This document shows positions 3,140-4,990 of a DNA stretch of 6,272 bases, piece by piece. The stretch lies in IMG/VR virus record IMGVR_UViG_2531839195_000008. One strand, given 5' to 3'. This stretch comes from a virus. Lineage: Duplodnaviria > Heunggongvirae > Uroviricota > Caudoviricetes. Made by a program: the position numbers and the translations under genes. Under the pieces are notes generated by a model that saw only the letters and a list, made by a program, of their open reading frames with translations, was not told the origin of the DNA and did not search any database. Positions within the stretch are counted from its first letter, which is position 1. Each line of letters opens with the position of its first letter.

Positions 3140-3494
3140 TACTGATACCCTCCCTCTTCGCCGTGGAATTCAAGATCTGCCGTGCCTTCTTCGGCATTAT
3201 GATTAGCCTCTCCGTGCAGCCATGCCGCCGAAAGCACATACACCATGCCGTTTGCCAGCTCAGCGGTAATCGTCATCTGGTCTGAGGTGGTAATTTTGTC
3301 GACCGGAAAGTTTTTGGGCACTTTAAACGTGCCCTTAACGTAAGGTGACCGCCAGGTCTCCTTGTAATCCACATCCCCTGCCATGCCGACGATGTCATCC
3401 CGGACATTGGTGTTCATCGGCACTTCAATGCCACCTGTCAGCGATAACTGCTGACCATCCACTTTAAAAAACAGGTTCCGGCGATCTTTGCCAT
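3139..3494 (-). CDS. Phage tail tube protein (Mu gpM-like size class); reading frame disrupted by a 1-nt homopolymer frameshift near the 5' end
   Basis: GAGGAG SD 8 nt before ATG at 3494-3492, which overlaps the sheath stop (TAATG). That frame reads MAKIAGTCFLKWMVSSYR* and stops at 3440-3438. The long ORF (...FFKVDGQQLSLTGGIEVPMNTNV... to TAA at 3141-3139) is the -1 frame from the T6 run at 3466-3471. Repaired length is about 118 aa. The ORF-track start at 3564 has no SD and would overlap the sheath gene by 70 nt. Confidence 0.65.
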
Positions 3495-4990
3495 TATGCT
3501 GACTCCTCTGAATACTGAAGACGGAACTGGTTAACCACCGCAAAGACACGTAACTGATTAACATAATCCGGCGGGAACAGCGTATTCAGTCGGTTCGGGT
3601 TATCTGCATCACGCTCAACTATCAGATACTGTTTAAACAGATCGTATTTTTCCACAATACCGGCACGCTCCATCTGACGATATGTCGCCAGAAGTTCCCC
3701 TTTGATAACGGCAGGAGTGACAATCGCCTGCCCCGGACCAAAACGGGTACCATCATTTGCCAGCTTGTGACGTCCGTACTTGCTTGTGATGACCGATTTC
3801 AGTTTGCGAAGAACATATGCACTGGTATGCAGAGTTTCACTGTCCAGATAGCTGTTGTCTGCCACGCCATACGCATTCTTTTTGTAGGTGGTTACGGAAC
3901 GCTGGATCTGCAACGTGCCGCCTTCCACATAAGCCGTCGCCACGCCGTGAGATAAAAGGGTCTGCTGCTCTGTCATGATGAATCGCTTACCTTTCGGTGC
4001 CGGAAGCATCCCCACCAGCTCCCCCGTCTGTGTCGGACGGGCAGGATCATTCCGGATAAATACCGCTTCACGGGCAAGGCGACTGGCAACCAGTTCATCG
4101 ACAGGCGACTGGGTTTCTTTTTCGTAACCGGCAAGCGTGATATGTTGCTGATTATGCATATCTCCGGCACCAACCAGCTCTGACAGCGTTCCCAGTTTTG
4201 CGGTATAGACATGCCCGTATAACTGGCGCGCATAACTCCAGCGACCGCTGCTGTCATTCATTTCGGTCATCATCATATTGATGGAGGCGGCATCGTTGAA
4301 CGGCAGACCGATAAAGTCGAATGCCTCATCGCCCATAGCAGCAACAGCGGCGGTAAGATCAGGCGCTCCGCTACCGGCAGCACCGACTTCCGTCACCACC
4401 CGAAGCCCTGCTGGCAAAATCTCACCACCACCAGAACCATAATAATTCAGACAGACCGGTAACTCATTACCATACAGCCCCTTATGACGGGCAGTCAGCG
4501 TCACCACGCCTGCATCAGATGACGCCGTAAACGGCAGGGTGATAACCCCGTTTACCGCTTCCTTAATCGCGGTGGCAACCGCAGTGGCATCATCGCCATT
4601 CACCACAGGCACCTGTACACGGGAGCGCCCGACATACAGACTCAGGGTGCCGCTTTCCTCTGCTTCTCCGGCAACCGTCACCCTGACCGTCGCCGCCGCC
4701 CCTCTGGCTTCCGGTACTGCAATAACATACAGTTCACCGAAAGGATCTGTCTGACGGTAGACTTCCACCATACGCGCCAGCTGGCTCCCCGCCCCACAAA
4801 TCTGGCGGGCATAATCTGCCGATGGCATCAGCACCAGGCTGTTAACCTCAATGGCTGCATCGTTGCTGGCATGCCCGATCAGTAATGCAGGCGCGCTGGT
4901 CACCGCTGTATTTGCCGCAGAATTGTTCATCTCGGCGTAGAACAACGGCACCAGCGTATTCGACGGAACAGTATTAAAACTTATCGTCAT
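3494..4990 (-). CDS. Phage contractile tail sheath protein (498 aa)
   Basis: Intact 498-aa ORF immediately upstream of the tube gene with stop/start overlap; its size and position match Mu-type sheath/tube/chaperone/tape-measure synteny. Assignment is mainly by synteny and size, not a recognised motif. Confidence 0.75.
   Translation of the reverse strand: MTISFNTVPSNTLVPLFYAEMNNSAANTAVTSAPALLIGHASNDAAIEVNSLVLMPSADYARQICGAGSQLARMVEVYRQTDPFGELYVIAVPEARGAAATVRVTVAGEAEESGTLSLYVGRSRVQVPVVNGDDATAVATAIKEAVNGVITLPFTASSDAGVVTLTARHKGLYGNELPVCLNYYGSGGGEILPAGLRVVTEVGAAGSGAPDLTAAVAAMGDEAFDFIGLPFNDAASINMMMTEMNDSSGRWSYARQLYGHVYTAKLGTLSELVGAGDMHNQQHITLAGYEKETQSPVDELVASRLAREAVFIRNDPARPTQTGELVGMLPAPKGKRFIMTEQQTLLSHGVATAYVEGGTLQIQRSVTTYKKNAYGVADNSYLDSETLHTSAYVLRKLKSVITSKYGRHKLANDGTRFGPGQAIVTPAVIKGELLATYRQMERAGIVEKYDLFKQYLIVERDADNPNRLNTLFPPDYVNQLRVFAVVNQFRLQYSEESA

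Follow-up and report, generated by a model that had tools for sequence, protein, structure and literature searches.

The tail tube gene in the 6,272-nucleotide stretch of phage DNA analysed here (the window) is of the usual Tail_tube type, with a product of 118 aa and a TAATG overlap that couples its translation to that of the sheath gene, and the frameshift that divides it is a one-base homopolymer contraction in an already well known gene, with no new biology. Comparison with sister genomes shows, at the level of the sequence, that two such lesions exist, one in the tube gene and one in the chaperone gene that follows it, that they are the sole differences from those genomes, and that the intact form is the conserved one. 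The distribution of the two lesions among assemblies suggests that both the T6 tract in the tube gene and the A6 tract in the chaperone gene are probably homopolymer undercalls of sequencing or assembly, not changes in the DNA of the organism.

Layout of the prophage remnant

The locus is a sheath-tube-chaperone-tape measure block of a Mu-like contractile tail in a Shigella flexneri or E. coli chromosome. What is left here of a phiP27/SfV-type prophage is a tail module of 5.4 kb, with an IS element at each edge. All the genes under discussion lie on the minus strand. One edge is formed by a partial copy of IS600 (IS3 family; 5501-6272, minus strand), which truncates the tail terminator gene, and the C-terminal part of the latter (5158-5514) corresponds to Pfam profile positions 83-147 of 150. 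There follow a DUF2635 gene (4987-5148), an intact tail sheath gene of 498 aa (3494-4990), identified by its ORF and by the Pfam matches Phage_sheath_1, domII and 1C, the frameshifted tube gene (3466-3494 plus the body at 3139-3465), the frameshifted tail assembly chaperone gene (2805-3139), an intact tape measure gene of 649 aa (771-2720; ORF and Pfam), and a 160-aa gene with no Pfam match (221-703).

The other edge is the end of an IS1 copy at 1-143, which truncates a DNA circularization gene. It is recognised from two observations: the match to phiP27-like prophages ends at about position 143 in the DNA comparison, and a contiguous sister locus (L046) has a DDE_Tnp_IS1 transposase gene at the equivalent of this end of the window.

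The remnant is without head and baseplate genes, and its tail terminator and circularization genes are truncated. Particle formation is impossible for it, whichever reading of the frameshift holds. S. flexneri SFBU1023, E. coli ECMA0423 and at least ten further chromosomes also carry this remnant, with an identical IS600 junction.

The tail tube gene as written in the window

The sheath ORF stops with TAA at 3496-3494, and this stop overlaps an ATG at 3494-3492 as TAATG. A Shine-Dalgarno sequence, GAGGAG, lies at 3508-3503 on the same strand, 8 nt upstream of the ATG. The frame that begins here translates to MAKIAGTCFLKWMVSSYR and closes at a premature TGA at 3440-3438, and the body of the gene, which ends with TAA at 3141-3139, is in the -1 frame after a run of exactly six T (3466-3471). 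The uninterrupted ORF of about 118 aa expected from the conserved N-terminus is absent from the window, where the start frame has 18 codons only. With its tube ORF interrupted, the sequence as written is either that of a pseudogene or one that contains an error.

When one T is added to the run, a continuous protein of 118 aa is obtained, MAKIAGTCFFKVDGQQ. In the DNA alignments, the T6 of the window stands against T7 in E. coli FDAARGOS_944, E. coli ATCC 43886 and phage phiP27, with one gap column. Since the same single-column gap falls at the T run against every close relative aligned, the frameshift, as judged from these alignments, is no chance matter. The missing T sits in a T7 tract that covers codons 8-10 (TGT TTT TTT), and it is its loss that makes the start frame close after 18 codons.

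These results uphold what the first-pass annotation had read from the window. It had taken the TAATG-coupled ATG with its GAGGAG for the true start, and the relatives annotate a 118-aa tube protein from that very ATG; its account of a start frame closed after 18 codons, with the body in the -1 frame after T6, agrees with a direct reading of the minus strand; and its proposal that one T is absent from the homopolymer, by deletion or by undercall, is borne out by the T7 of the relatives and by the 118 aa that the additional T restores. Beyond that first reading, the present analysis finds a like lesion in the next gene, IS elements bounding the tail module, and a pattern across assemblies that favours an undercall.

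The start of the tube gene in relatives

The tube gene is annotated with a length of 357 nt (118 aa) from the TAATG overlap in FDAARGOS_944, ATCC 43886 and phiP27, and the equivalent start is also the annotated one in phages SfV and ST64B. Both the repaired protein and the ORF present in the window exceed the curated cut-off of the Pfam family Tail_tube (PF10618; 23 bits). Residues 1-115 of the repaired protein match profile positions 1-115 with 115.7 bits. The 141-aa ORF that opens at ATG 3564 matches with 103.3 bits, from residue 31 and profile position 8 onward; the region of the -1 frame body is 98% identical to the phiP27 protein L45.

With the repaired protein as the query, tblastn finds 26 phage records that match residues 1-118 in a single frame, with 77-98% identity. 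The start regions were read directly in nine phages or prophages, seven enterobacterial and two distant. The motif M-x-[KR]-[IV]-[AG]-G-T-x-[FY]-[FV]-K-x-D-G-Q-Q is common to the seven enterobacterial phages aligned, and the distant Pseudomonas PG1 and Burkholderia BgVeeders33 retain the motif core only, (I/V)AGTx(F/Y)V..(V/A)DG.Q. The tube ATG is preceded by GAGGAG in phiP27, SfV, ST64B, Pantoea AH07 and Edwardsiella EPP-1, and by a weaker or shifted purine-rich box in YeP1, PG1 and BgVeeders33. Synteny is kept: the tube gene follows immediately on the sheath gene, and the chaperone and tape measure genes come next. The T run, however, is not conserved: at this place SfV has TGT TAT TTC, ST64B has ACG TAT TTC, and Pantoea AH07 has GCA TAC GTC. 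Therefore, the run has no function of its own, and the MAKIAG start is the real one.

The closest known counterpart in a phage is L45 of the Stx2e phage phiP27 (NP_543097), to which the repaired window protein is 98% identical over all 118 residues, and WP_001062338 of FDAARGOS_944 is identical to the repaired protein. FDAARGOS_944 is the best match among E. coli complete genomes (99.9%), and it has an IS4 insertion in its sheath gene. A further E. coli prophage orthologue of L45 is WP_001062340, and the annotation of ST64B Sb14 notes a similarity to Mu gpM. The prophages with L45-type genes share with the window the sheath-tube-chaperone-tape measure order, the TAATG coupling and the Shine-Dalgarno sequence. 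They differ from it in that the window has T6 in place of T7 and its gene split over two frames, and in that its prophage has been cut to 5.4 kb by IS600 and IS1.

The 141-aa ORF may be considered as the real tube gene, extended at its N-terminus into the sheath gene. Among the ORFs with a Tail_tube domain it is the longest, and its start was picked once by a gene caller in a public assembly (L044). This start is, nevertheless, practically inconceivable as the real one, and the comparative data rule it out. No purine-rich Shine-Dalgarno sequence precedes ATG 3564 (ccgccggatt ATG), residues 1-30 of the ORF have no Pfam match, and its N-terminus occurs in none of the relatives, all of which use MAKIAG or an equivalent. 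On the same allele, moreover, gene callers prefer GTG 3462, which gives a protein of 107 aa (44 blocks of public assemblies, versus one for 3564), and this preference indicates that there is no real signal at 3564. The first-pass annotation had dismissed the start at 3564 as a likely artefact, and rightly so, considering the missing Shine-Dalgarno sequence, the Pfam match that is confined to residue 31 onward and the sheath overlap of 71 nt. The comparison of the two N-termini that it had proposed identifies that of the repaired 118-aa protein as the conserved one, and the homologues compared include none that starts at the equivalent of 3564 and lacks a MAKIAG-type N-terminus.

A second lesion in the chaperone gene

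The chaperone gene shows the same arrangement as the tube gene. Its ATG (3139-3137) is again part of a TAATG, translation in frame 0 gives MAMNVTEIVLKNR before a TGA at 3100-3098 on the minus strand, and the body is in the -1 frame. The tract at codons 10-12 is A7 in all relatives and A6 (3105-3110) in the window, and A6 is found in none of the 51 E. coli genomes compared. The repaired chaperone has 111 aa and matches the Pfam family Phage_TAC_7. This second contraction, A7 to A6, lies 361 nt from the T6 run of the tube gene.

A third homopolymer deserves separate mention. The chaperone gene contains, 230 nt downstream, a T7 run in the phase T_TTT_TTT (2871-2877) that is uncontracted in the window and has a length of 7 in all clean assemblies. 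A -1 shift at this site would produce a 142-aa fusion that ends at the start of the tape measure gene. A conserved programmed -1 frameshift is described for tail assembly chaperones, as in G/GT of lambda and E/E' of P2 (Xu, Hendrix and Duda 2004, cited in PMC5009743). The candidate site at 2871-2877 matches this conserved arrangement (PMC5009743) and, to judge from its sequence and position, is probably where the genuine programmed -1 frameshift of this module takes place, in the manner of G/GT or E/E'. In contrast, the T6 of the tube gene is unlike these sites: it belongs to a structural gene, at whose 5' end it lies, the peptide encoded upstream of it has 18 aa, and no shift is needed in the relatives.

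Distribution of the two contractions among genomes

A 61-nt query centred on the T run matched 52 E. coli records (51 complete genomes), one of them exactly (ETEC1746) and 50 with one extra base. With a pattern that accepts either allele, 27 IMG/VR contigs were found, 26 with T7 and one (L029) with T6. T7 is likewise present in both GTDB representative genomes that contain the pattern, S. flexneri SFBU1023 and E. coli ECMA0423, which have the same IS600 junction as the window, but T7 and A7. The exact match, QDW99_RS14920 of ETEC1746, shares with the window both the T6 allele and the 61 nt in which it is embedded, and is annotated by NCBI as 'phage tail tube protein, frameshifted'. Its prophage background, however, is about 96% identical to that of the window, and its chaperone gene is intact (A7). 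Considering this background, the T6 of ETEC1746 is an independent event or an error.

The exact sheath protein of the window occurs in about 1400 blocks of public assemblies. Ten independent genomes that share this exact sheath protein and the IS600 junction served as sisters in a comparison with the window. Nine of them agree with it across 5478 nt, and L038, the tenth, across 5098 nt. All ten have T7 and A7 and a single tube ORF, and they differ from the window only in T7/T6, in A7/A6 and in at most one or two strain-specific differences. In relation to these ten sisters, the changes private to the window within the prophage are the two contractions of 7-nt homopolymers, and there are no private substitutions. 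An A/T difference at 3647 was considered as a third error and rejected, because the Lys-bearing exact sheath protein is the one found in about 1400 blocks; the A at 3647, in which the window departs from E. coli relatives, thus represents a real variant of a lineage.

Exact-protein look-ups with the 141-aa and 107-aa tube ORFs and the 130-aa chaperone ORF revealed further assemblies with one or both contractions, none of them identical to the window. T6 occurs alone in six of them (L044, L045, L046, L047, L050 and L051), A6 alone in L055, the two together in L052, L056 and L057, and the two together with many more homopolymer contractions in L049 and L054. Carriers of T6 plus A6 include the runs SRR060519, SRR060520 and SRR061724; A6 without T6 is found in SRR4193548, and T6 without A6 in GCA_018025975.1 (DADWSV01), GCA_000213435.2 and GCA_000213475.2. 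Some T6 assemblies (L049, L052 and L054) show wholesale homopolymer contraction, and L054 is short at each of the 11 tracts tested. Of the five other A6 contigs, four also have T6, and they represent two backgrounds, 3647 being either A or T. Tube lesions are present in about 3% of assemblies (44 versus about 1400 blocks). The tube gene also bears lesions of other kinds, namely a 10-nt deletion (in L053, with 10 further places of a similar kind) and the loss of one G (in L048).

Undercall or genuine deletion

If the contractions are undercalls, the intact state of the organism would be T7 in the tube gene and A7 in the chaperone gene, both of them single ORFs, and base-calling or assembly would have dropped one T and one A from these 7-nt tracts, so that both frames appear broken. 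The T6 of the window is a single-base change in a homopolymer of at least 6 nt, within a sequence that is otherwise identical to the sisters, and a second homopolymer length change, from A7 to A6, is present in the same assembly. The association of T6 with A6 is far above the tube lesion frequency of about 3%, which points to a shared technical cause. That the association is seen on two backgrounds is hard to account for by independent mutations and easy to account for by a shared weakness in base-calling. In repair-proficient E. coli, mutation-accumulation work leads one to expect more substitutions in 5.4 kb of sequence than indels in its five runs of 7 nt. On this general knowledge of mutation rates, two indels and zero substitutions would be a signature of base-calling rather than of mutation.

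A precedent for this kind of error is known in S. flexneri. Single-base errors in the reference sequence of S. flexneri strain 301 created falsely truncated or frameshifted fusA and zwf genes, which were corrected after resequencing (PMC3219829). The fusA and zwf errors were verified experimentally, whereas the contractions in the window are known from comparison of sequences.

A systematic homopolymer error across the window was considered and rejected, because only two 7-nt tracts and no 6-nt tract are affected. The T7 tracts at 2871-2877, 760-766 and 189-195, the A7 tract at 5537-5543 in the IS600 region, and all 6-nt tracts are uncontracted. Any error process would thus be sporadic, not systematic.

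The contractions may also have arisen by genuine replication slippage, in which one T was lost from T7 and, separately, one A from A7 in an already non-functional prophage. The remnant is gutted, lacking head and baseplate genes and having two truncated genes, so that under this reading nothing would preserve the tube and chaperone ORFs. T6 also recurs, alone, in otherwise clean-looking assemblies of at least three backgrounds (L044/L046, L050 and L045/L047/L051), a pattern that speaks against an undercall, and it is present in ETEC1746, with its frameshifted annotation, and in the IMG/VR contig L029. The accession prefix of L044 is one that we take to mark NCBI short-read third-party assemblies; if this is true, some isolates at least do possess T6 as a genuine allele. 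The 10-nt deletion and the deleted G in other assemblies look genuine and imply that the tube gene does decay in nature, and the restriction of the contractions to two of the window's 7-nt tracts also favours slippage. On the other hand, slippage would require two independent homopolymer deletions with no substitution in relation to ten sisters, and independent mutations are an improbable source of a T6 and A6 pair that is seen on two backgrounds, in read sets that are separate. Most of the T6 assemblies are, furthermore, visibly error-prone or have the look of early drafts, the dating being a reading of accession and run numbers. Replication slippage is therefore regarded as possible but rather unlikely, and undercalling as the probable origin of both T6 and A6.

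Possible recoding at the contracted tracts

In all likelihood nothing is encoded by the frameshift, whether it is an undercall or a real deletion. A contrary view would be that ribosomes shift by -1 on T_TTT_TTA, or that transcription slips on the run, so that the T6 allele is expressed after all, and the chaperone likewise on A_AAA_AAC, the predicted product being a tube protein of 117 aa that begins MAKIAGTCF(L/F)KVDGQQ. Both lesions do leave canonical X_XXY_YYZ heptamers in the correct phase (in the tube gene, TG[T TTT TTA] at 3465-3471), but this phase is a trivial result of the original tracts having started at codon position 3. A moderately stable RNA structure (-30.6 kcal/mol, z = -2.3) lies a few nt downstream of the tube heptamer, but it is equally present in the T7 genomes, in which no shift is needed. 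Corrective low-level frameshifting at homopolymer indels has a precedent in herpesvirus thymidine kinase (PMC5009743). In E. coli, however, U_UUU_UUA and A_AAA_AAC show much weaker -1 shifting than A_AAA_AAG (PMC5009743).

The requirement for a shift is, moreover, not conserved: the tube gene is a single ORF in 50 of the 51 E. coli genomes, in 26 of the 27 IMG/VR contigs and in all ten sisters, and the more distant intact phages have no run at this place (TGT TAT TTC, ACG TAT TTC and others). The frame-0 products are peptides of 18 aa and 13 aa without homologues, and hence the arrangement has no two-product logic; and the prophage would be unable to make particles in any case. Programmed frameshifting at the tube T6 was rejected on its non-conservation and on the weak shiftiness of the heptamers, and expression by recoding or slippage seems scarcely credible. 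It is also very improbable that T6 and A6 are genuine and that the T7 and A7 tracts, at the 5' ends of the tube and chaperone genes of phiP27-like prophages, serve as hypermutable switches that turn the genes on and off, or that -1 slippage on T_TTT_TTA and A_AAA_AAC gives a leaky rescue; this, if true, would explain the recurrent contractions in many Shigella and E. coli assemblies.

Implications for annotation

The importance of the finding is limited to annotation hygiene. For the tube gene of the window, the proper annotation is a frameshifted copy of a 118-aa Tail_tube gene with its start at ATG 3494, unless the sequence is corrected to T7; neither the 141-aa nor the 107-aa protein should be annotated. 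The chaperone gene needs equal treatment. Recurrent homopolymer undercalls of this kind seed spurious clusters of short proteins, such as a 107-aa 'tube' protein in 44 blocks and a 130-aa 'chaperone' in five.

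Lesion in the chaperone gene

The tail assembly chaperone gene, which lies immediately 3' of the tail tube gene on the minus strand, carries a lesion of the same type as that of the tube gene. Its frameshifted 5' part spans 3098-3139, and frame 0 from the ATG at 3139-3137 reads MAMNVTEIVLKNR before reaching a stop. The tract at 3105-3110 is A6 in the window, as against A7 in all relatives, and the repaired protein (111 aa) matches Phage_TAC_7. The shortened tracts of the two genes (T6 in the tube gene, A6 in the chaperone gene) occur jointly in three separate read-set assemblies, L052, L056 and L057 (Logan SRR060519, SRR060520 and SRR061724, respectively). 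These assemblies span two backgrounds, distinguished by T or A at the equivalent of window position 3647, and the background of L057 is that of the window itself.

The chaperone gene also contains a candidate frameshift site on the minus strand, the T7 run at 2871-2877, which is uncontracted in the window. A -1 shift at this tract yields a 142-aa fusion ending in the region of the tape measure start codon, and the site is probably a conserved programmed frameshift of the G/GT type.

Borders of the remnant and the IS600 copy

The tail module is a remnant of 5.4 kb, in which the IS600 edge (5501-6272) cuts short the tail terminator gene and the IS1 end (1-143) cuts short the DNA circularization gene. 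Identical IS600 and IS1 junctions are found in many S. flexneri chromosomes. A minus-strand ORF of 160 aa (221-703) separates the tape measure gene from the truncated circularization gene; it has no Pfam match and is annotated as hypothetical in relatives.

Within IS600 orfB (5545-6272), the window copy lacks 27 nt at about 5972, in frame (CACACAGGAGGGATGGTTGTACCTCGC), with loss of the residues TQEGWLYLA; a T at 6014 is likewise found only in the window. Base-by-base reading of three sister loci (L005, L006 and L027) shows that the 27 nt are retained there. They appear to be retained in the other sister loci as well, judging from the same 25-nt alignment break, and presumably also in the six E. 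coli records listed, which give two-piece 755-nt matches. Either a genuine deletion or an assembly error in a multicopy element may account for the absence.

Other lesions of the tube gene

Different lesions are present at the 5' end of the tube gene in other isolates. L053 (SRR13429671) has a 10-nt deletion, with loss of AACCTGTTTT, which was also observed in ten further similar places; in L048 (AWOX01000081.1), a G is deleted in the ATGG start context. These different lesions suggest that the tube gene is truly decaying in some lineages.
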